Positions 2,534 through 16,044 of a stretch of DNA of 62,310 bases are shown in pieces. The translations under genes and the position numbers were made by a program. Source of the DNA: a virus (taxonomy: Duplodnaviria; Caudoviricetes); IMG/VR virus record IMGVR_UViG_3300006224_000011, positions 1-62,310 of that record; one strand, given 5' to 3'. The first letter of the stretch is position 1. Each line of letters begins with the position of its first letter. Below the pieces are notes generated by a model that was given only the letters and a program-made list of their open reading frames with translations, was not told the DNA's origin and searched no databases.

Positions 2534-3079
2534 TTATATACCCAATACCTTAGGTAATTCTAATATATTATTAATCCATACAATTCCATTATTAGAGGCT
2601 TGCTCATAATAGTCATCATTCCACCTCTGTCTTACACCAATAAGGCTGGTGGTTCCTTGTAAAGACTTTAGATAGTCTGCCCTGTCTTCTACATAATAAT
2701 CTGTTTTAAATTTAGAGATGAAATCTTCTTTTCCATATTGAATAATAAATAATTCATCTGAGTTAGGAAAATTGTTTTTCACTAAAAAATCGGATGTTAC
2801 ATCAGTCATTTCTTTTTCTCTTTTTGTTAAATAGAAAACATCATATTTTTTAGCACATTTATTCACAACATCTACAGCACCGTCAAATGGTGCACCTCTG
2901 AACAAACTCTCTACTCTGGTAATATCGTGCCAAAACTTATCCGGCATGATCTTCCAAACATATGTCCAGAAATAGTCATAAGTATAATCCGTCTGACCGG
3001 AATTATAAAGATACTCCCACACATACAGATGCCACGGATATAGGACTCCATCTAAATCAAACCCTAATTTCTTTACCAT
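2534..3079 (-). CDS. HAD-family 5'(3')-deoxyribonucleotidase-like protein
   Basis: N-terminal FDLDGVL HAD motif I, PFDGA, YLTKR and YVEDR motif IV. Confidence 0.75.
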   Translation of the reverse strand: MVKKLGFDLDGVLYPWHLYVWEYLYNSGQTDYTYDYFWTYVWKIMPDKFWHDITRVESLFRGAPFDGAVDVVNKCAKKYDVFYLTKREKEMTDVTSDFLVKNNFPNSDELFIIQYGKEDFISKFKTDYYVEDRADYLKSLQGTTSLIGVRQRWNDDYYEQASNNGIVWINNILELPKVLGI

Positions 3080-3278: not shown

Positions 3279-3662
3279 TTAAGTAATTCTTCTCGTCCAT
3301 GTAGCACCATTTAAGATATAGATTTTTAATAATTTACTCTGCTCTTTAGCTAAGTTTATAGAATGCTCTGTACCTTTAGATTTACCATCCCAAAAAGCCA
3401 CCAGTTTATCACAGTTATCAACTATAAGTTGGTTTCTTATATAACCAGCAGATTTACCATATTTATCCCATTGTGCAGGGAATATTGATTTAGATATATT
3501 CTGTTCATCTGCAAACCTTTCTGCTAAAGAATCAATTCCCCTGGCACCACCAGAGATTATTAGTTTTACATCATAGTTATTTACTATAGACTCTAATAAA
3601 TCTCTTACATCATCATAATACTGCTCTTCAAACTGTCTTGAACCAACCACTGCTAACTTCAC
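3279..3662 (-). CDS. SLOG/YspA-like (DUF2493-type) protein
   Basis: KLAVVGSR, IISGGARGIDSLAE, AGYIRNQLIV and AFWDGKSKGT. Confidence 0.8.
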   Translation of the reverse strand: MKLAVVGSRQFEEQYYDDVRDLLESIVNNYDVKLIISGGARGIDSLAERFADEQNISKSIFPAQWDKYGKSAGYIRNQLIVDNCDKLVAFWDGKSKGTEHSINLAKEQSKLLKIYILNGATWTRRIT

Positions 3663-6678: not shown

Positions 6679-7897
6679 AGATCACCTATATAAAATGACT
6701 TTCGCACGCAGTATCGTGTTCTATATGTCTTTCATAATAATTTTCAGGCTTAGGCTTTCCGTAAACCCTGGTTTTATAAATATCTTCTTTGCCACATAAA
6801 ACACAAATCCATTCTTCAAATTTATACCAGTAAGTACATTTAGTAGTATCTGGTTCTACACACTCATGACCACATCTAACACACTTAAAACCCACCAAGT
6901 CATCAGATAACCATTCTACAGCAAAAATGTGTTTCATTTACTTTTCCAGTATTCTATAATTTGAAATAAGCCGACCATAGCGGAAATTAAAAACCCCCAA
7001 ACAAAAAATGCCCTGCCTACCCCACAATCCATAGAAAAAGATAAAACCATTAATACTAATCCTAATATAAAGAGTAGGAGTATTACTAACTTATTGGCGT
7101 TCATTTTTGTTTCTTCTCTTTTCTTTCTTCTACTTCATCTGGAATAGATTTAACTACTCTACTATCCAAAGTTGTCTTATTTCTACGTTCATTTTTCTTT
7201 TCCCTACGCAGAGCGTGATAAAGTTTTGACAAGTTTATTTTCATCATTAGCCTCCACAAGATCATTTTTACTATTACAGTAATAACAACCTAATTTTTTC
7301 ATCCCTTCTATATACTCTAGTTCTTTTTGTTCGTCTCCTAGAGTTATAGAGTAACGTGTTTTTGTTCCACACTCTAAACACTGTAAAACTTTACTAACCA
7401 TAATTAATTTGCTTTCTTTTCTGTAATATTCTATCTCTAATACTGTTTAACTCTTCTGTATCTGTTATTTCAAATCTCCTGCCTCCATTTAATTTGTAAA
7501 CTCTTTTGCATAAATCACAAAACCAAAAGAGTTTATTTAAACCGTCTACTTCTAAGTTATAGATATCGAGACATAAATTACAGTTTGCACACTTCATTTA
7601 TAAATCCGCTTATTAATTTCGTCTAATTCTCTTTCTAATCTTAATACATCGAAAAATTTACCTATAGTAACCTCAATAACATCTTTTTCTAACCCTAGTT
7701 GTTCTGCTCTCAACATCGCATCATAAATATGAAAATTGAACTCTTCTGGTACATATTTCATAACTAATAATTCTGATAAAATCATTTCTGTATCTATCTT
7801 AATTGTATCGTCTAGTACCCAATCTCCAATATAATCTTCTTCTCTAAAATCATCTAACCCTATTCTCATTTTATTTTCCTTTCTTTTAGATAAAAAT

Positions 7898-7951
7898 CAG
7901 CCAACATTTTTTTCTTTTCCTCAAAAGATAGTTTTTTGCTGGATGTTGGCT
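7898..7951 (-). ncRNA. CAGCAA/anticodon-hairpin element, copy 2 (Leu-GAG-like loop)
   Basis: AGCCAACAU-CCAGCAA-AAAACUA-UCUUUUGAGGAAAAGA-AAAAA-AUGUUGGCU-G. Perfect 9-bp closing stem; the inner hairpin register fits a 7-nt loop less well than in other copies. Confidence 0.7.
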
Positions 7952-7962
7952 TAATTTATATT

Positions 7963-8024
7963 CAGACTACGCTTGACCGGATTCAATTATCAGTTGAAGG
8001 GTTTTTGTTTGCTGTATGTAATCT
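7963..8024 (-). ncRNA. CAGCAA/anticodon-hairpin element, copy 1 (Ile-GAU loop)
   Basis: AGAUUAC-AU-ACAGCAA-ACAAAAACCC-UUCAA[CUGAUAA]UUGAA-UCCGGUCAAGC-GUAGUCU-G, starting 3 nt after tRNA-Thr. Confidence 0.75.
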
Positions 8025-8027
8025 TGT

Positions 8028-8099
8028 AGCCTCCGGAGAGAGTCGAACTCCCATAATCAAGTTACAAAGTTGATATGCTACCATTTGCATTACAGAGGC
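8028..8099 (-). tRNA. tRNA-Thr(UGU)
   Basis: Cloverleaf: acceptor GCCTCTG/CGGAGGC, D-stem ATGC/GCAT, anticodon arm TCAAC-TTTGTAA-CTTGA, T-arm GGGAG-TTCGACT-CTCTC. No encoded CCA. Confidence 0.88.
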
Positions 8100-8121
8100 T
8101 ATTAGTTGTTAAGGTAATTAT

Positions 8122-8150
8122 AGTATAGCACATACCTTACAGTTTGTCAA
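8122..8150 (-). promoter_or_regulatory. Sigma70-type promoter driving tRNA-Thr and the CAGCAA elements
   Basis: TTGACA-17 nt-TATACT with extended -10 TG. Confidence 0.8.
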
Positions 8151-8376
8151 GGGTCAATTTTCAAGTCCGTACGAGCGTAGTGGTGCTCTCCTATCCTTAT
8201 TAGCACCATGTCCAGCCTGTCCCATTTTGGCATGATATAAGCAGATGCCACTCTCATTACTAAGAACAGCCCTGTTACAATATGGACAAATAGTAACTAT
8301 CCAATGCTCATGCTCCTCACAGATATCATCATTAGTGATATTGAAATAGTCACCTTGACAAACAGGACAAGTCATC

Positions 8377-8760
8377 TTAGCCCTTTCCTTTCTCTCTTTC
8401 CTCTTCTTCGTCTCTTTCTTCTTCTAGGAACTCATCATAACTTCTTGTTTCTTTTAGTAAGTCGTTGTATTCTTTGAGTTTCTTATAGCCTCCACTATAA
8501 AATAGCAGGGAAACTAGTGAACCAACCCCCACTAAAAGGGCAGAGCGTATCCACTCAACCCAATCTGTAGGCATAGTCACGTTACTAACTCCTAACAAAG
8601 CTAATAGTGGAAGTACTAATATATTTAAAACTGGAATTGATACGGCATAAAAAGCCGTTGGAAAGTCGTACTGTGGGTTTTTCTTTAGAAAACGAATACC
8701 CCACTTTACTAATTCCAATAACAACATAGCTAGTCCGCCGTTAATAAGCATATCATCCAT
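8377..8760 (-). CDS. Membrane protein with about 3 hydrophobic segments and a charged C-tail
   Basis: Hydrophobic stretches and a charged C-terminus. Confidence 0.5.
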   Translation of the reverse strand: MDDMLINGGLAMLLLELVKWGIRFLKKNPQYDFPTAFYAVSIPVLNILVLPLLALLGVSNVTMPTDWVEWIRSALLVGVGSLVSLLFYSGGYKKLKEYNDLLKETRSYDEFLEEERDEEEEREKGKG

Positions 8761-9358
8761 CTTTATCCTCCATTTTATCTACGAAGTTTAGTATAGTTTT
8801 TAATACTTCGTCTAGATCGTTATCATTATTTGTTATAATAAAATCATAGTATGTTAAATTTTCTGGCAAAGAATTTTCAGAAACGTCTTTAGCTAAGTCT
8901 CCTTTTAAACCGCCTCTTACGTCCGACTCAACTCTAACTGCTACTACAAAAAAATTACCTGTCTTTTCAAGATAGTTTCGTTCATTTTCAAAACGCCAGT
9001 CATCAACAATATACACATCAGACAAATATAAATCATCATCAATTAACCTAACCAGTCTTTTTACCCACACATCCTTATCATATTCTCTACCTATATTTCC
9101 GATACTTTGTAGTAATTTTCTACCCCTATCATCTTTATCACCATTCCAATTAAAGTAGTCAATCGCACAATCTTTTACTCCATCTGCAAAACCTAAAATT
9201 CGTGTAGAATAAGCATTGTCATTAAATAAGCTAACTAGTCTATTAGCAATATAAGTTTTACCTACTCTGGCTTTTCCAGATAAAAGAATGATGATTGATT
9301 TGGACTTATAAACATCATCCCACATAACAACTGATTTTACTAGTCCCGTTGCTTTCAT
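8753..9358 (-). CDS. Deoxynucleoside monophosphate kinase
   Basis: P-loop SGKARVGKT, FADGVK, RKLLQSIG..GR and DDWRFENE. Confidence 0.85.
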   Translation of the reverse strand: MKATGLVKSVVMWDDVYKSKSIIILLSGKARVGKTYIANRLVSLFNDNAYSTRILGFADGVKDCAIDYFNWNGDKDDRGRKLLQSIGNIGREYDKDVWVKRLVRLIDDDLYLSDVYIVDDWRFENERNYLEKTGNFFVVAVRVESDVRGGLKGDLAKDVSENSLPENLTYYDFIITNNDNDLDEVLKTILNFVDKMEDKDG

Positions 9359-10103
9359 AATTACTCCTCTCTATATTCACTAAGTAGTCCTTCCAAAACT
9401 TTTGGAGAAATAAAACCTCGGAATAACATATATTTTAAAAGAGCATAGAAGTTAAAACTAGATATAATCACTGAATCTGACGTAGTTATAAAAAATCTAC
9501 CTCCTTTATTCTTTTTAATTACAATTGTCTCTAAATCATCTAATTTAAAAATTTGTATGCTATTCATCTAGGTTATTCTCCATTGGGTATAATCTACCCT
9601 GATCATCTTCACTAATGTATAAACCATCAATTTCTAAAGACGGTAGAGTATTATGTATATATCCAGAAGTTTTACCAATTAACCTTCCTAATTGTTTAGG
9701 AAATAACCCTGGATTATCAGAAATTGTTTTAAACAGGTTTACTGCTACAGAAGTCCTTCTATTTCTCTTTGTCATACCCTTACTGCAAGAGCGCCTTTCC
9801 CTCGCCACTACCTAACTCTTCGTCATCCATAACTTGTTCAACAAACAAGTCCCCGTCTACCTGTTCAAGATACATTAGAACAGACATTGTAACTAGTTCG
9901 TTTGCTTTAGATAAGTCCTTATCAGTAGCTTGCATGCTCACCTGCCTACTGTCCCAGGTACTGCCATCAAAGGTCTTACTTTGGGTAACCTTTTGTTCTA
10001 CCTTCCAGTAACCATTAGACAGCTTGGTTGCCATCGTATCTGTAGTTATTCTATATCCAACAGTCTTATCGTTTACTAAATCAGCCATTTTATATGCCCT
10101 TTC

Positions 10104-10814
10104 TTATATTGAAGTCTTAATCCATTTACGCATAAACTCTATTCGATTATGTAACCTTTCAGTAATTATAACATCATATTCGCAGTGTGTCAAGACCAAA
10201 CTTATAGCATCTCTATCTCCATATTTAGCTAATCTCCATATATCCTTATCTAGAGGCGTTTTACCATCAATCCCTAAGTAATTGCATGCGTTATCTAATG
10301 AGTTTCTGGATAATTTAAGTTTGTCTCTTACAGTAAAATACAAGTCCCATTGAAACAATTCTCCATAACCTGGAAATTCTAATCCGTAATAAAGTGCTTT
10401 ACTTCGCATATATGGAATATCAAATCTACTAGAATAGTATCCTACAACAATTTTATAATTAGAAATTTCATTAATAAACTCTTTAATAAGTCTGTAATCA
10501 CTACGACCATCAAATAACTCATCTTTGGTTATAAAACTAGATATTATTTCCCCGTCCTTTTGTTTTATACACCATGCTAACACCGTACCAAAATCTGCAT
10601 TTAGATTATCTGTCTCAATATCTGCATACGCTATCCTGTATCCTGGGTATTTATACCACTCACTTCCTGTTACTTTAGAAAACGTTTTATCATCGGGCCA
10701 CTTTATCTGTCCCTTAACAAAACAAGATGGGTGCTCATCTATTGTGTGTCTGTGAACACAGCGCAAATCTTCTTTCATCTTTTTTGATTTTAATACTTCT
10801 TCTACAATACTCAT
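10104..10814 (-). CDS. RNase H-like/DnaQ-type 3'-5' exonuclease
   Basis: ADIET, YSSRFDIPY, DLY and HCEYDV exonuclease motifs. Confidence 0.8.
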   Translation of the reverse strand: MSIVEEVLKSKKMKEDLRCVHRHTIDEHPSCFVKGQIKWPDDKTFSKVTGSEWYKYPGYRIAYADIETDNLNADFGTVLAWCIKQKDGEIISSFITKDELFDGRSDYRLIKEFINEISNYKIVVGYYSSRFDIPYMRSKALYYGLEFPGYGELFQWDLYFTVRDKLKLSRNSLDNACNYLGIDGKTPLDKDIWRLAKYGDRDAISLVLTHCEYDVIITERLHNRIEFMRKWIKTSI

Positions 10815-11251
10815 TTTTCCTCACTTATATGATTTTTTAGTTTAGATATCTGTTCTTTTTTTAGATTATATTTGTTTGTTAGATAGTATATAAAACCTTC
10901 ATCAGTAAAAATTCCCCCAAGATGAAATGCTACTCTAGAACAAATATCCGCAAACTTTTTGTTTATAGTGGGTCTAGATATATCTTCGTCTCTTTCTATT
11001 TGTGAAACAGTTCTATTTGATAAGATATACTCCAATACTCTAAGTTCATCAGATGAGATCAACCCATTATCTATTAATTCCTTAAGTTTCTTTTCTACAG
11101 TCAGTAAGTCCATATAAACATCAGAATTGAAGTCATAAAACTCAAATTGATTCTCCTCTAAATCTAATGCAGAGCCATTTTCATAGGTATCCCTAATTAG
11201 ACTCTTTATACTGTCTCTTTCTAACAATAATTTCCTAACATACCACGACAT
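10811..11251 (-). CDS. Putative HTH DNA-binding protein (sigma region 4-like)
   Basis: SSDELRVLE...TVSQIERDEDISRPTINKK helix-turn-helix pattern. Confidence 0.45.
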   Translation of the reverse strand: MSWYVRKLLLERDSIKSLIRDTYENGSALDLEENQFEFYDFNSDVYMDLLTVEKKLKELIDNGLISSDELRVLEYILSNRTVSQIERDEDISRPTINKKFADICSRVAFHLGGIFTDEGFIYYLTNKYNLKKEQISKLKNHISEEK

Positions 11252-11253
11252 TT

Positions 11254-11613
11254 TTACACTATCTGACTTCTCTCATTAGCTGACTGTGTTCTATATAAAT
11301 CAATAATCTCTTTATATAGTTGGAACTTAAGTTTAGTTTCTTCCAATTTAGCTGAAATACCAGCTAGTCTTGCTCTTTTCTCTTTCAATTCCCCATTAAA
11401 ACCAGTCACTTTCCAGGTAGCGTCTATGTACGCCATTGATGGTGGTTTACCTCCCTGGAAGTAGTCTGGATTTGTTGTAGCTATTTTAGCAATCTCACTT
11501 TCCGAGAATTTAATATCTAAGTCTAACATTGATCGTTCATAAGTCAAGTCAGAAATAGTATCTACTAATTTAAACATCATCTCAATATCTGGTAACTCTA
11601 TTTTATACGACAT
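11254..11613 (-). CDS. UvsY-like recombination mediator (putative)
   Basis: Helical ~120 aa protein ending IDLYRTQSANER, in the same arm as RecA and SSB. Confidence 0.45.
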   Translation of the reverse strand: MSYKIELPDIEMMFKLVDTISDLTYERSMLDLDIKFSESEIAKIATTNPDYFQGGKPPSMAYIDATWKVTGFNGELKEKRARLAGISAKLEETKLKFQLYKEIIDLYRTQSANERSQIV

Positions 11614-11987
11614 ATTTATCTACTAACCTTTCTATATCTTTATATTTTTTGCACAATAAGAATGAAATCTCTATAACACAGTCTGGTGTCACATGACTTA
11701 TCATTAGGATATCTTGTCTATATCTCTCATAGTTATTGTTACACCTATTATACACCGCAATTGGAGAAAAGTCAAGGTCTTCTTCCCAACCCTCAAATCC
11801 TAAATTATCATACAGTACTTCTTTCACATACTTTACACTGCTCTTTAAACCAAATGAGATTCTTAGATTACTATATCCTGAGATACATTTCTTTATAACA
11901 TCTATAGCAGAATAGTACTCTAAAATATTTTCTGGTATAGAGTAGTTTAGTCTATAGTATTCTTTTATAGAATCCCACAAAGTTCTC

Positions 11988-12440
11988 TCAATCATCATTC
12001 TTTTCTATCTTATCATATAAAAGGTCTAATTCCCTTTTAAGTTGGTTTGTATAATTAATTATATCACAGAATGTATCAAAATCTAAAATTAAAAAATACT
12101 GTACCCCATCTGCTTTTCTAGCACCGGAAAATTTACACGCAACTAGAGGATACGAATAAGTTTCATCAGCTTCTTCTATGATTTTATTTATCCATTCTTT
12201 TTGTACGGTTAGCTGTTTTTCACCACCATAACCTACTTTAGTTTCTATTCTGAACTTTCTAGGGAAACCATAAAACTCAACTACAACATCCCCTTTAAGG
12301 AGAGGTTCGTTTAATGCAGTACCTATTGCACCTGAACCAGCGATTCTTTTGGCTTTTAGTGTCATAGGGATTTTTTCTTGTATTAACTCAACAAAAAGAT
12401 TCTCCCATTGAGTCCCTTTGATCTTCTTTTTATTAACCAT
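11988..12440 (-). CDS. Hjc-type Holliday junction resolvase
   Basis: KGTQWE, KRIAGSGA, GDV and IETK. Confidence 0.75.
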   Translation of the reverse strand: MVNKKKIKGTQWENLFVELIQEKIPMTLKAKRIAGSGAIGTALNEPLLKGDVVVEFYGFPRKFRIETKVGYGGEKQLTVQKEWINKIIEEADETYSYPLVACKFSGARKADGVQYFLILDFDTFCDIINYTNQLKRELDLLYDKIEKNDD

Positions 12441-12703
12441 TAGCTTCTATCCATGTAAAAAGTATACCTATAAAATATATGAATAACAAAAATCCTGGAA
12501 GGTAAATCAATAATTCTTTACCATCATATACAATAATATCTTTCCATGACCAATGAGCTACCCATCCTTCTTTTTTAATTTTGCCTTTTGTTTTATCTAG
12601 AACATGAAAAATTTCTGTTACAAATAACATAAAAGACACGGTACTAAATAAAAATAAAGCACCCATCAAAATATAATAACCGCCAGTTAAAAATGTTTCC
12701 ATT

Positions 12704-14002
12704 TCAACCCTCTGTAATCCTATTAGTTTCTTTATCAAATTTAGAGAACACCGTTCCTATTGGGCCGTTTCTCTGCTTAGCTATAATATGTTCCATCTCA
12801 CCTTTATGTTTAGATTCTCTGTTATAAAGTTCATCTCTATATAAAAACATAACCACATCTGCATCATCTTCTAAAGTACCAGATTCTTTTAGATCAGATA
12901 GAATTGGTCTCTTATCAGGTCTGCGCTCTAATTCCCTGTTAAGTTGAGAATACGCTACAGAACAAACTTCTATCTCTTCTGCTAATAGCTTTAAACCTCT
13001 AGTTGCTTGTCCGAGATCGTGCCGCATCTCTGTTGATCTTTCTACTAAAATTTGTAGATAATCTACGTGTACTACTTGAATATCATAAATCTTTTTGTAT
13101 CTGCGTATAGTGGAAAATACGTAGTTTAGATTTCCAGAGAAGTTGGTATCAATATGGATGGGATAGTCTTTTATTTCCTTTATTTTCTCAGCTATTAAAT
13201 CTAGTTGTTTTTGGTTCAGCATCCCCAAATGGATGTTATAAATTGGGATACCAGTTTCTATAGCTAAAATTCTATGGACTAGAGATTTTCTTCTCATTTC
13301 CCTAGAAATTAATAGACTGGGAATTCCCACCTTAGCACAGCGTATAATAGAATTAACTGCCATAGCTGATTTCCCCATCCCGGGACGACCAGCGACCACC
13401 CACAAATCCCCAGGTTCGTAACCATACGTTATAGCATCTATATGCTTAAACCCAGATGTGGTTTCTATTTTAGCACCGGAATTAACCCTCTCAACTAAAT
13501 CTGTCCAGGTTTCTCTTGATGCTTGCTTTAGATCAACTGTTTTACCACCACCTTCTAGACTGGATAAACTATCTAGGTTGTCTCTTACATAGTTTATAGC
13601 ACTATCTACATCGTTTTGATTTTTAACAATGGTAGGTATTTGATTTGATATGGATATTAAAGTTCTAGCTTTGAAAGAATTTACTACTAATCTTTCAAAG
13701 TCTTTCAAATAATCTTTATTATAATCTTGATTATAAAGATAACTTATATAACTTTCACCACCACACTCATTTAATTTAGAAGATGATTTTAGATAATATA
13801 AAAATAAGTTATAATCTGGTGTAACTCCTGTAGACAATAATGTTACTAAAGTATCCAATAAATTTTTATTAATTTCAGATGATAACATGAAAGACTTAAC
13901 ATCTGTTATGTCATAGACAGCAGATGGGTCTTTTAGAATAATGGATAGTAATGCTACCTCTGCATCGTTATTAAATAAATCATTCATTGGGTTCATCCTC
14001 AA
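12704..14002 (-). CDS. dnaB: Replicative DNA helicase DnaB
   Basis: AGRPGMGKS, SREM, VDYLQ, SQLNR, RPILSDLKESGTLEDDAD and IAKQRNGP. Confidence 0.95.
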   Translation of the reverse strand: MRMNPMNDLFNNDAEVALLSIILKDPSAVYDITDVKSFMLSSEINKNLLDTLVTLLSTGVTPDYNLFLYYLKSSSKLNECGGESYISYLYNQDYNKDYLKDFERLVVNSFKARTLISISNQIPTIVKNQNDVDSAINYVRDNLDSLSSLEGGGKTVDLKQASRETWTDLVERVNSGAKIETTSGFKHIDAITYGYEPGDLWVVAGRPGMGKSAMAVNSIIRCAKVGIPSLLISREMRRKSLVHRILAIETGIPIYNIHLGMLNQKQLDLIAEKIKEIKDYPIHIDTNFSGNLNYVFSTIRRYKKIYDIQVVHVDYLQILVERSTEMRHDLGQATRGLKLLAEEIEVCSVAYSQLNRELERRPDKRPILSDLKESGTLEDDADVVMFLYRDELYNRESKHKGEMEHIIAKQRNGPIGTVFSKFDKETNRITEG

Positions 14003-14378
14003 ATGGGTTCAAATTTATTTTAACCTTTCTGACCTTTTCTGTATTTTTCTCAAACTGCTTTACCAAAAATGTAAGGTCTACTGGTAAATTAAAATTAGTA
14101 GAGTCTCCCAATCTCTTTTTAGCAAAATAAGATATAAGGCGAGCTATACTAGAATCAAAATTAATATTCTCCATATCAGCACAGTCTAATAACGCAAAGT
14201 AAATTAACTCCTTCCCATAAATCTTATATAGTCTAGCAAACATTTTATACGTAGACTCGTCTGCTTTATCTACATCAAATAAAGACCTATAGAAAGCTAC
14301 TAAAGTACCTACTGGATTAGTAGTCTCTCTTAGTTGGTTATAATAAAACTCAGCCAGCGGTTCTTCTACATTACTCAT
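13980..14378 (-). CDS. Hypothetical protein overlapping the dnaB start (possible loader)
   Basis: ORF with AAGGAG Shine-Dalgarno; function suggested by position only. Confidence 0.4.
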   Translation of the reverse strand: MSNVEEPLAEFYYNQLRETTNPVGTLVAFYRSLFDVDKADESTYKMFARLYKIYGKELIYFALLDCADMENINFDSSIARLISYFAKKRLGDSTNFNLPVDLTFLVKQFEKNTEKVRKVKINLNPFEDEPNE

Positions 14379-14392
14379 AATTTCTCCTTAAA

Positions 14393-14463
14393 TAGCGGGA
14401 GGAAGATTCGAACTTCCCTGTCGAGTTTATGAGACTCGTAAGTATCCTCTACTTTATCCCGCT
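14393..14463 (-). tRNA. tRNA-Met(CAU)-like
   Basis: Acceptor AGCGGGA/TCCCGCT, D-stem AAGT/ACTT, anticodon arm CGAGT-CTCATAA-ACTCG, T-arm GGAAG-TTCGAAT-CTTCC. Confidence 0.85.
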
Positions 14464-14467
14464 GTAA

Positions 14468-14519
14468 CAGACTCCATTTTTCCAATTTCGAGTTGGGGTA
14501 TTTTTTGCTGTATGGAGTC
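14468..14519 (-). ncRNA. CAGCAA/anticodon-hairpin element, copy 4 (Ser-CGA loop)
   Basis: GACUCCAU-ACAGCAA-AAAAUACC-CCAA[CUCGAAA]UUGG-AAAA-AUGGAGUC-UG, lying between tRNA-Asn and tRNA-Met. Confidence 0.75.
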
Positions 14520-14523
14520 GTAA

Positions 14524-14596
14524 CTGCTACGTCTGGAGTCGAACCAGAACCTACACGATTAACAGTCGTATGCTCTGCCAATTAAGCTACATAGCA
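14524..14596 (-). tRNA. tRNA-Asn(GUU)
   Basis: Acceptor TGCTATG/CGTAGCA, discriminator G, anticodon arm TACGA-CTGTTAA-TCGTG, T-arm TCTGG-TTCGACT-CCAGA. Confidence 0.92.
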
Positions 14597-14600
14597 ATAC

Positions 14601-14654
14601 CAGATTCCTTTTTTCCAATTAAAGGTTGGGTTTTTTGTTTGCTGTAAGGAATCT
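14601..14654 (-). ncRNA. CAGCAA/anticodon-hairpin element, copy 3 (Lys-UUU-like loop)
   Basis: AGAUUCCUU-ACAGCAA-ACAAAAAAC-CCAA[CCUUUAA]UUGG-AAAA-AAGGAAUCU-G, ending 4 nt before tRNA-Asn. Confidence 0.75.
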
Positions 14655-14666
14655 TCTATTCAGTTT

Positions 14667-15455
14667 TTAGTAAAGTGCATCAATTTTCTTTTTAATATCT
14701 TCGCTAGTAACTATAACTTTCTCTTCTAAAGCGGAGTCCATTTTTCTACCGCCTCTAGCTAAGAAGATATCTCTTAAAGAAACTCCCTGCAATAAGCTAA
14801 CAATCTCATTAGCAGTTAGAGTAAGTACTGCTCTACTTAAGTCATGTAGAAACTCATCTGGTAGGTCAACCTTATCGTTTCTATCTGCCATAAGCATTGG
14901 GGTAATATTTTTCTTACTGCCTACTTTATTCACCATGAATAAAATATCGTAGTTATTCATACCAATAACATTACCCTCATTATCCAGTAAACCTCTTTCC
15001 TGAGCATTAATTTGTACAGCACAGGTTTCACTGACACTAGCTACTTTTACCTTATCAGAGATGGTTGGCTCTACCTCTAAAATAAGATGGCTATTGGGAC
15101 ACACTGGCGGGTACTTACCAACTAAATCTTTCTTAACTTCTTCACCGCACTCTTTACAGACTTTAACTTCTGTTCTGTCTAAACAATTAAAGTAGTGTCT
15201 CACACTTCTAAAGATATATCCCGGAACATCTCTATAGTTATCTGGATGCTCTGCCATAATTTTCTTGTTATTTAGACAAATTGGGCATTCATCCTCTAAA
15301 CATTTAACAACCAGTTTAAACTGTGCTAAATAATGAGTAAAAACTTTAACTGGTTCATCTAAAATTCTAACCGTGTGATTCCCAAAATCGAAAGTTAAAA
15401 ATGGGATTTTTTCAAAAGTTTTCTTTTCTGAATCTGAAAATGTATCGAATGACAT
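14667..15455 (-). CDS. Single-stranded DNA-binding protein (gp32-like, Zn-binding)
   Basis: HTVRIL...THY...KC...CPIC...RHYFN...YDI layout, downstream of recA. Confidence 0.6.
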   Translation of the reverse strand: MSFDTFSDSEKKTFEKIPFLTFDFGNHTVRILDEPVKVFTHYLAQFKLVVKCLEDECPICLNNKKIMAEHPDNYRDVPGYIFRSVRHYFNCLDRTEVKVCKECGEEVKKDLVGKYPPVCPNSHLILEVEPTISDKVKVASVSETCAVQINAQERGLLDNEGNVIGMNNYDILFMVNKVGSKKNITPMLMADRNDKVDLPDEFLHDLSRAVLTLTANEIVSLLQGVSLRDIFLARGGRKMDSALEEKVIVTSEDIKKKIDALY

Positions 15456-16044
15456 TTTATTAATCTCCTTTTTCTAATGTTATTTTTTCTGGATTATATT
15501 TAATTTTTATATTTAAGTATTCTAAAATCATATATAAAAGTTTTTTAATTTCTATTATTTTAATTTGATGGGATGTCGGATATGCATATGGATACCCACT
15601 CATAGTAACTGTAGGCTCGGCATTACCTTCATAATAAAAAATAATCGAGTCCCTTACTTCAGTTCTTAAAGCTTTTACTTGGTTTTCTAATATATCTATT
15701 CGACGTTCCAACTTATTAATTTTACTAGAACTAAACATATTTTACTCAGCTTTCGTAAATAACTCTTTTATCAAATCTAATGTATTAACTTTAACTTCTT
15801 CTAAATAACCGATAGCCTCTTCAACATTATATGGGTGTACTTTTTCAATTAGTTGTAAATATTTTCTATAGTCAATCTCCAATTGTATAAGTTGTAAATA
15901 TCTAACCTCACTAATCAACTCTCTATCAAACACTACATCTTCTGGTAAACCTCCTATGCTGTCAAATAATTTAATATTCTGATACTGACCTAGACTGTAA
16001 GTTCTCTCAACCGATAATGCTCTGTTTATATTCTGTTCGTCCAT

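Follow-up and report, generated by a model that had tools for sequence, protein, structure and literature searches.

The window analysed here, the whole 62,310-base IMG/VR virus record IMGVR_UViG_3300006224_000011 (CheckV completeness 66%, GC content about 33%), comes from a tailed phage according to the PHROGs matches of its open reading frames (ORFs). On its minus strand, in two short clusters with three tRNA genes, it carries four small structured elements, here called A to D. DNA identical to the window is found in freshwater and wetland metagenomes, and a megablast search of positions 7000-15500 against GenBank phages gave no match. A preliminary description had proposed four minus-strand elements at this locus, and all of them are in place (read 5' to 3', A 8024-7963, B 7951-7898, C 14654-14601 and D 14520/14519-14468). 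Its account of a common layout also holds for each of them: a closing stem, the motif U(A/C)CAGCAA, an A-rich linker, a short hairpin, a second A-rich linker and a 3' strand ending in CUG. We refer to the closing stem with its adjoining motif as the handle, and to what it encloses as the cargo. Elements A, C and D are spaced 2 to 4 nt from tRNAs, and the window holds more elements (four) than tRNAs (three). Both are given below, with bit scores for two covariance models built here (R1 and R2, described further on) and for the Rfam family Dicty_Class_I_RNA (RF01414).

7898-7951, minus strand: element B; handle AGCCAAC/GUUGGCU (up to 9 bp when extended), with the variant motif AUCCAGCAAAA, 3' G; R1 39.0, R2 31.7, RF01414 14.2 bits
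7963-8024, minus strand: element A; handle AGAUUAC/GUAGUCU, then AUACAGCAAAC, 3' G; begins 2 nt after tRNA-Thr; R1 52.4, R2 37.2, RF01414 17.6 bits
8026-8100, minus strand: tRNA-Thr (UGU), directly upstream of element A and co-oriented with it; ARAGORN, Rfam tRNA 54.4 bits
14393-14463, minus strand: tRNA-Met (CAU), 4 nt downstream of element D; ARAGORN, Rfam tRNA 52.5 bits
14468-14520, minus strand: element D; handle (C)GACUCCA/UGGAGUC(U), then UACAGCAAAA, 3' G; spacers of 3-4 nt to tRNA-Asn and tRNA-Met; R1 50.6, R2 28.1, RF01414 21.7 bits
14523-14597, minus strand: tRNA-Asn (GUU), between elements C and D; ARAGORN, Rfam tRNA 62.7 bits
14601-14654, minus strand: element C; handle AGAUUCC/GGAAUCU (up to 9 bp when extended), followed by UUACAGCAAAC, A-rich linker, 3' G; R1 58.5, R2 48.4, RF01414 32.8 bits

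Read from the sequence, the closing stems are as first described and comprise 7-9 bp in all four elements: 7 bp in element A (AGAUUAC/GUAGUCU, one U-G pair included), and AGCCAACAU/AUGUUGGCU (9 bp), GACUCCAU/AUGGAGUC (8 bp) and AGAUUCCUU/AAGGAAUCU (9 bp) in the others. In each element U(A/C)CAGCAA starts nine bases from the 5' A/C. The closing stem is present in the RNAfold minimum-energy fold of all four; thermodynamics alone is weak support, since the z-scores are -2.3, -2.8, -0.1 and -3.4. The inner loops had all been likened to tRNA anticodon loops, and three of the four stand, because element B forms none. The hairpins of element A (UUCAA/UUGAA, loop CUGAUAA, Ile-GAU-like, with U-A-A-U on the 3' side) and element D (CCAA/UUGG, loop CUCGAAA, Ser-CGA-like) are as described and belong to the minimum-energy folds. 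That of element C (CCAA/UUGG, loop CCUUUAA followed by U, Lys-UUU-like) can be drawn, lies outside the minimum-energy fold and has a C at position 33. The best local hairpin of element B is UCUUUU/AAAAGA with a GAGG tetraloop, and its minimum-energy fold pairs part of the motif instead; by eye it comes close to a D-arm-like subtype of the relatives described below, CUUUU-AUUGGUA-AAAAG. The elements lack D- and T-arms and are missed by tRNA finders, as had been predicted: ARAGORN and Rfam, the latter at its gathering thresholds, call only the three true tRNAs in the window. A tRNA (RF00005) cloverleaf with a free 3' end for CCA was found in none of the window elements, which have one hairpin each.

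The four window elements are real members of a large phage RNA family. Relatives were collected from viral contigs with two patterns, both seeded with the motif, so that all counts from the listed elements are lower bounds and their handle-position frequencies are biased. The first pattern specified a tRNA T-loop and then TACAGCAAA at a set distance, and left the closing stem unspecified. It retrieved at least 120 loci; 42 of the 120 matches listed have seven or more uninterrupted pairs closing on CUG, compared with 1.3% of 6,000 shuffles, and the distribution of stem lengths is bimodal. As that pattern ignored the closing stem, the bimodal distribution is unselected evidence for it. The second pattern specified the motif and five pairs of the stem, with no tRNA needed. 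It retrieved at least 124 loci, and 116 of the 125 matches listed pair at both free stem positions, where about 14% would be expected. Together the two collections hold at least 187 unique elements. The core motif occurs 249 times in the listed loci and the window; a stricter descriptor (7-bp stem, [ACU]CAGCAA at a fixed offset and a 3' G), run on the same sequence, matched 129 elements, 114 of them unique, with eight matches in all from five shuffling rounds. The covariance model R1, built from 25 sequences, found 70 matches at E<=0.01 in 108,588 bases from 100 listed loci. To guard against circularity, R2 was built from 50 sequences, none of them from the window, with the closing stem as its only structure. 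On both strands of the 62,310-base window it finds exactly the four elements (48.4, 37.2, 31.7 and 28.1 bits), the next best match scoring 13.7 bits. The covariation proposed for the closing stem is also borne out in the 50-sequence alignment, where all seven pairs have changed on both sides; 99.1% of the cells are paired, a fraction owed in part to the sequences having been chosen for their stems. None of 500 shuffles scored as high, and no slid register came close. The inner helix of the cargo shows the same behaviour, with changes on both sides at four of its five pairs.

The consensus of the handle was drawn from the 114 unique listed elements, with positions 11-16, the stem and the last G forced by the descriptor. 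Its 7-bp stem has the 5' strand A (71%) G G A U R C, which is followed by any base, U (90%), A (91%), C A G C A A and A (82%), and then by A/U-rich sequence with almost no G. The 3' linker is 54-60% A in its last five bases, and the 3' stem strand ends in a U (82%) that pairs with the first base and is itself followed by the G. The second stem pair is G-C in 48 of 50 sequences, with one extra nucleotide, usually A, preceding the G; stem pairs 8 and 9 are optional, being unpaired in 9 and 7 of 25 sequences. The flanks are U-rich on the 5' side and AU-rich on the 3' side, where the first base is U in 67%. A pseudoknot between the CAG of the motif and the 3' CUG was considered and is ruled out by geometry, the CUG continuing the bottom of the closing stem and the CAG lying two bases above its top. 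An antisense pairing of UACAGCAAA with rRNA was considered as well and seemed unconvincing. Copies with changed motif letters and intact stems also occur (AUACUGCAAU, UUGCAGCAAAC, UUCAGCAA and AAUCAGCAA), namely at L084 1024-1124 (minus strand), at L304 266-330 (positions 311065-311129 of Cronobacter phage GAP32) and in L035, L102 and L126. The motif thus tolerates changes before CAGCAA and, rarely, inside it, and a motif-free search would probably enlarge the family.

The cargo is the variable part. The 114 unique listed elements were sorted with simple regular-expression heuristics, which gave the following classes.

25 of 114: anticodon-like hairpin only
9 of 114: D-arm-like hairpin only
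6 of 114: T-arm only
15 of 114: T-arm before D-arm, with or without an anticodon-like arm
7 of 114: native order D-anticodon-T
12 of 114: other combinations
40 of 114: no part recognised

The idea of varied anticodon loops on a common scaffold therefore has to be widened: the scaffold recurs in at least 187 unique relatives, and the cargo is not only an anticodon loop but also includes D-like and T-like arms, tRNA bodies and permuted domains. Where the cargo is short (63 listed elements), 31 of 58 hairpins have a 7-nt loop, against 3.05 of 39.75 per round of shuffling, and 19 fit Y-U-NNN-R-N with varying anticodons, against 0.15 per round, as the preliminary description had led us to expect. 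The anticodons in the 65 listed elements with such a loop are led by UUU (17), UGU (5) and GUA (4), all others occurring three times or fewer. A single sequence, CUUUUAA, as in tRNA-Lys(UUU), makes up 17 of the 65 loops, and U36-A37-A38-U39 is found in 25 of them. Members with the native order appear by eye to be tRNA bodies with a degenerate or absent acceptor stem, which the handle replaces across an internal loop; in L094 the Rfam tRNA match spans model positions 4-67 only. In permuted members a small loop caps the acceptor stem, and the exit point of the handle is between the D-arm and the anticodon/variable arm. These are not artefacts of tandem tRNAs, because the handle encloses the whole unit and no further arms follow. 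No member has a free acceptor end with CCA, though neighbouring phage tRNAs often encode CCA, and for this reason the elements cannot work in translation.

The family keeps close company with tRNA arrays without being confined to them. The anticipated co-occurrence is plain: among the matches listed, a tRNA on the same strand lies within 15 nt of 75 of 116 elements, and 28 of 116 lack any tRNA within 300 nt. Within the listed loci, 56 of the 115 inter-tRNA spacers of 40-150 nt hold the motif. All five jumbo phage records tested have one to five R1 matches each. In Cronobacter phage GAP32 at least eight copies lie at 306.4-311.9 kb among its tRNAs, and Xanthomonas phage XaC1 has a group of five at 328.5-329.8 kb, in a stretch free of annotation; the nearest tRNA is over 2.4 kb away, which shows that the family is not tied to tRNA processing. 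No R1 match was found in T4 or T5; the T4 'species 1/2' RNAs therefore do not belong to this family. A scan of prokaryote genomes (596 billion bases) with the second pattern returned 48 loci, most in coding sequence, where a rough estimate of chance gives about 34. By eye, the only convincing copies among them are in five viral-looking metagenome-bin contigs (L129, L138, L147, L154/L170 and L175). L154 and L170 belong to one 186-kb contig from a Hyphomicrobiales metagenome bin, with the same four-element array at about 3.7-7.7 kb and at 154-158 kb, an arrangement that suggests the terminal repeat of a jumbo phage binned with a bacterium. Element copies are also present in L056 (three), L081 and L224, which are GVMAG contigs from giant-virus metagenome bins; these are either true eukaryotic-virus sequence or misbinned phage fragments, a distinction that bears on the resemblance to Dictyostelium RNAs discussed below. 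At L020 622-1002 (minus strand) an element stands directly downstream of a phage tmRNA gene (ARAGORN, tag peptide ending in AVAA), not of a tRNA. In GAP32 the gene GAP32_431A (L301 3882-4001), a 39-amino-acid 'hypothetical protein', abuts or overlaps an element at L301 3993-4055, and may be mis-annotated non-coding RNA sequence. Among 71 inter-tRNA spacers with terminal stems of at least 7 bp, 24 seemingly lack CAGCAA (the set includes L012 102-223, L035 904-1026, L039 255-341 and L073 951-1053), and several of these hold the motif at a shifted register. Several of those without it have long stems of 10-21 bp, and it appears that other unclassified structured RNAs share the phage tRNA arrays.

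Taken together, these results show a conserved, covarying and modular phage RNA family whose cargo consists of tRNA parts and which cannot be aminoacylated. Our preferred reading, held tentatively, is that the elements are tRNA-mimic decoys or baits for host tRNA-binding proteins. The four window elements would then be genes for small, stable, non-chargeable tRNA-mimic RNAs in which a constant handle carries a variable cargo. The handle is modelled as a 7-bp covarying stem opening into an asymmetric internal loop, with N-U-A-C-A-G-C-A-A-A on the 5' strand, an A-rich 3' strand and a 3' G, and the window cargos as three anticodon-stem-loop look-alikes and one other hairpin. Transcription would proceed together with the phage tRNAs, for tRNA-Thr, A and B from a sigma-70-like promoter described below, and host processing in the AU-rich spacers of tRNA or early transcripts may release the RNAs, with trimming up to the G-C-rich handle ends. 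We take the unpaired CAGCAA strand as a candidate protein-binding site, and the handle could give stability or bind a partner. That partner is probably a host factor, since the phages are very diverse and no window protein is common to four jumbo genomes: in a tblastn search of 94 window ORFs against GAP32, XaC1, G002 and G003, which divergent or structural homologues would escape and for which the window is 66% complete, five ORFs matched and none did so in more than two genomes. The cargo would engage proteins that read tRNA arms and thus serve as bait for host proteins. We infer expression as separate small RNAs, their processing, a partner for the handle and the decoy function from these features.

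PrrC and RloC target tRNA-Lys. The excess of Lys-UUU loops, followed by Thr-UGU, parallels the preferred substrates of known anticodon nucleases, and of the functions first suggested for the elements it is the nuclease decoy that would gain from this circumstantial match. The window phage and XaC1 both encode tRNA-Thr(UGU), tRNA-Asn(GUU) and tRNA-Met, not tRNA-Lys, and both have Lys-like short elements. In GAP32 UAAU is retained in an Asn-GUU-like short element, next to which the true tRNA-Asn has UAAG. Such parallels between the Lys, Thr and Asn loops and nuclease targets are suggestive coincidences, not tests.

Several observations weigh against decoys of this kind. No recognisable tRNA part is present in 40 of the 114 unique cargos, an anticodon-like loop is found in only 65 of the 187 listed elements, element B has none, and in element C the universal U33 is replaced by C. 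The hosts are not E. coli, and the tRNA species in question are common in phages. The analysis turned up no nuclease, no sponge target and no partner for the handle. The Lys-like loop excess could reflect descent from tRNA-Lys instead of selection for a Lys-specific bait. The window tRNA-Asn keeps UAAUC and in this respect does not look like an AriB escape variant; AriB also contacts the D-loop (PMC12409363), which the anticodon-only elements do not have.

Among the closest known systems are phage tRNAs that evade anticodon nucleases, such as the T5 tRNA-Lys, tRNA-Thr and tRNA-Asn acting against AriB of PARIS (PMC12409363, PMC11464382), with which the present elements share the array setting and the identities Lys-UUU, Thr-UGU and Asn-GUU. 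Those spare tRNAs are complete, chargeable and replace the cleaved host tRNAs, whereas the elements cannot be charged and would act as baits; both are presumably phage answers to tRNA-targeting defence. RNA decoys are themselves known in anti-defence, as the RNA anti-CRISPRs (solitary repeats) and the pseudo-ToxI antitoxin RNAs. The concept is the same, a phage small RNA mimicking the RNA ligand of a defence protein, but here tRNA parts are mimicked, a constant handle is present, and the family is known from sequence alone. A bolder form of the decoy reading would have a universal handle (7-bp stem plus UACAGCAAA) turn any tRNA fragment into an anti-defence bait against tRNA-cleaving nucleases, Lys-UUU and Thr-UGU foremost, with the same handle module defining the Class I RNAs of Dictyostelium through a shared origin or partner. 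We regard this combination as improbable.

The handle also has likenesses among named RNA families, and these support readings of their own. That no named family could be assigned, as the preliminary description had it, is right in so far as every score is below threshold, but all four window elements resemble RF01414, and longer relatives resemble RF02553 (YrlA). Against RF01414 (cut-off 41.5) the window elements score 32.8, 21.7, 17.6 and 14.2 bits, the best non-element match in the window 10.9 bits, and ten elements of other phages 24.7-34.5 bits; the matches are full-length in all but one of the 14, and none reaches the cut-off. Our comparison uses these model scores and the published definition. 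In Kjellin et al. 2021 (PMC7919456), Class I RNAs are described as dictyostelid-restricted, about 60 nt long and driven by a DUSE promoter, with a 6-bp covarying end stem, an invariant 5' G and an unpaired 11-nt motif, CCUUACAGCAA, whose positions U3, C6, C9, A10 and A11 are nearly invariant across dictyostelids. The outgroup search of that study took in one bacterium and no phages, which leaves room for true kinship, the handle being one ancient or horizontally moved ribonucleoprotein module bound by the same type of protein in amoebae and in infected bacteria. Common to both are a length of about 55-60 nt, a short (6-7 bp) covarying 5'/3' stem with a conserved G-C at its 5' end, (CC)UUACAGCAA after the 5' strand with A-rich sequence following, a variable remainder and a CUG at the 3' end. 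The Class I motif is matched at all 11 positions in element C, at 10 in D, 9 in A and 8 in B, and the family consensus reads N-U-A-CAGCAA-A; the most conserved positions given there, C6, C9, A10 and A11, fall in the CAGCAA core, itself required by our searches. The common part is short, however, about nine bases and a generic stem, and compatible with convergence or chance. The phage motif lies one to two bases nearer the 5' end, and its first bases belong to the stem; the phage stem has 7 bp, with the conserved G-C kept and an extra nucleotide before the G. The phage elements sit inside polycistronic tRNA/mRNA units, whereas Class I RNAs are driven by their own DUSE, and tRNA-like cargo is not described for them. 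The DUSE sequence WCCCAYAA occurs ten times in the window, where 9.4 are expected, and on the minus strand upstream of none of the elements. Kinship is conceivable on these grounds, and we think it rather unlikely. The second likeness is to Y RNAs, which, according to PMC4201824 and PMC12135203, have a 5'/3' stem and an internal loop with a CGAA-type Ro60-binding motif, to which YrlA adds a permuted tRNA-like domain. The handle could then be a counterpart of the Y RNA basal stem that binds a ring or nuclease partner (host Ro60/Rsr, PNPase or other), the cargo bringing this partner to tRNAs or tRNA-binding machines and redirecting host RNA decay or repair, which goes beyond soaking up a nuclease. 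The architecture fits, with a basal stem, a conserved motif on the 5' strand of an internal loop and a tRNA-like effector module (compare PMC4201824), and there are known examples of Y-like phage RNAs recruiting host PNPase (PMC12135203, PMC4201824). The YrlA-type order of T-arm, closed acceptor and D-arm is found in 15 of the 114 unique listed relatives. RF02553 gives ten matches at 26.1-36.5 bits in 20 listed loci, all far under the cut-off of 69, and these alignments cover the T-arm, closed acceptor and D-arm, not the basal stems. That order is found in none of the four window elements, and most members, these four included, carry a single tRNA arm, as no described Y RNA does. The handle reads UACAGCAAA (CAGCAA) in place of the Ro60-binding motif GNCGAAN0-1G or CGAA, and its 7 bp make it much shorter than a Ro-binding stem. 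TROVE (PF05731) was absent from all eight element-bearing records searched: the 66%-complete window, two cultured phages (XaC1 and GAP32) and five jumbo records of IMG/VR. Four of the eight are at least 93% complete by CheckV, and two are complete GenBank genomes. On balance the Ro60-ligand idea put forward in the preliminary description would seem to gain from the YrlA-like relatives and to lose from the missing CGAA and TROVE, and a Y-RNA-like tether is in our view a possibility of low probability. By these criteria the phage family belongs to neither RF01414 nor RF02553.

Other readings do without a trans-acting RNA, or without mimicry. The stems could be cis-acting signals between tRNAs, for processing or for blocking exonucleases, with the cargos as decayed tRNA remnants that have no function. 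The tRNA within 15 nt of 75 of the 116 elements and the motif in 56 of 115 spacers would fit this, as would the AU-rich flanks with U in 67% right after the 3' G, which are as expected of RNase E-type sites, whose consensus is AU-rich. The 28 of 116 elements without a tRNA within 300 nt speak against it, and so does an invariant single-stranded motif of nine bases, more than a stem-type signal needs. The reading is weakened further by the five clustered XaC1 copies, over 2.4 kb away from the nearest tRNA, by the excess of elements over tRNAs in the window and by selective maintenance of the loops, seen in Y-U-NNN-R-N 7-nt loops far above chance and in double-sided changes at four of five inner-helix pairs. 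We judge such punctuation unlikely. Small ribozymes occur beside phage tRNAs, like the theta and other HDV-like ribozymes of gut phages, and the tight placement of the elements next to tRNAs, with a conserved junction motif adjoining the closing stem, could recall a new self-cleaving or self-processing ribozyme. Yet the pairing of 5' and 3' ends is unlike the nested pseudoknot of HDV-like ribozymes, only one junction strand is conserved, and the interior, with a length between 25 and over 90 nt, takes unrelated folds. No ribozyme family of Rfam 15 (HDV-like/theta, hammerhead, twister, pistol, hatchet) matched at E<=10 in window positions 7600-8400 or 14200-14900, and we give this explanation very little weight. 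Hardly credible, finally, are armless tRNAs working in translation, on the lines of the D-/T-armless mitochondrial tRNAs, whose outline is a terminal stem and an anticodon arm. A 7-bp terminal stem with a 4-5-bp stem and a 7-nt Y-U-NNN-R-N loop matches that bare outline, but CCA is not encoded, unlike in many neighbouring phage tRNAs, and the same handle carries D-/T-like hairpins, permuted domains with a closed acceptor, or cargos with no anticodon loop. We also know of no bacterial translation factors that accept armless tRNAs.

The family is apparently undescribed: we found no account of a CAGCAA-handle RNA in phages in the literature searched, which excluded subscription-only papers and PDF supplements. 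Modular non-coding RNA that mimics tRNA is already known, YrlA-type Y RNAs being nearest to the family and Class I RNAs nearest to the handle alone, and what is new here is the handle itself and the principle of displaying single tRNA arms. Nucleases that target tRNA are emerging as a major arm of bacterial immunity, and phages are known to counter them with spare tRNAs and RNA repair enzymes. If the decoy reading or the tether is true, non-chargeable tRNA mimics would add an RNA-decoy or tether strategy to phage counter-defence, and the family would account for many 'empty' spacers in phage tRNA arrays. Proof of a decoy function or of the Class I link would make it categorically new. The idea is directly testable, because the family occurs in cultured phages with tractable hosts (GAP32 and XaC1). 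The likeness of the handle to Class I RNAs, whose mechanism is not known, offers a testable lead for those RNAs too, and the YrlA-like members tie the family to the puzzle of what purpose the tRNA-like domain serves in bacterial Y RNAs. The family is also a compact natural scaffold for the display of RNA hairpins.

A promoter can be proposed for one of the two clusters of the window.

8122-8150, minus strand: candidate sigma-70-like promoter, TTGACA-17-TATACT, the second hexamer being preceded by TG; match at 11 of 12 consensus positions

This consensus match lies about 22 nt upstream of tRNA-Thr and is likely to be the start of a unit with tRNA-Thr, elements A and B and the downstream genes. 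Its quality is high, though the number of such sites in the window, one, compared with a mean of 2.7 in shuffles, is not significant. The cluster at 14393-14654 has no comparable promoter site and is probably read through from the upstream ORF of 262 amino acids. No terminator-like site was found after either cluster. Contigs from RNA-labelled runs reach part of an upstream ORF and 37 bases of tRNA-Asn with three differences, the elements lying outside that cover; the contig matching tRNA-Asn with three differences is probably from another organism.

By PHROGs matches, the minus strand of the window further carries a replication module (DNA polymerase, UvsX-like recombinase, DnaB-like helicase and primase), and the plus strand carries packaging, tail and lysis genes. 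The preliminary description had raised a link to RNA-repair or Ro-type genes, and none was found in the window by PHROGs on 85 ORFs and Pfam on 50 ORFs, the only lead being the ORF at 2534-3079 (minus strand, 181 amino acids). This ORF has weak matches to phrog_420 (function unknown, E 4e-14) and phrog_415 (polynucleotide kinase, E 1.3e-6), and in Pfam just a sub-threshold LNS2 match; a true RNA/DNA end-healing kinase would suit the theme of tRNA damage. Close by, the ORF at 3279-3662 (minus strand, 127 amino acids) encodes a SLOG-family protein (Pfam YAcAr/YspA-related, 1.2e-10; DprA-like, 5.6e-9), which is the sole small protein of the window with a clear jumbo-phage relative (G002, E 1.7e-24).

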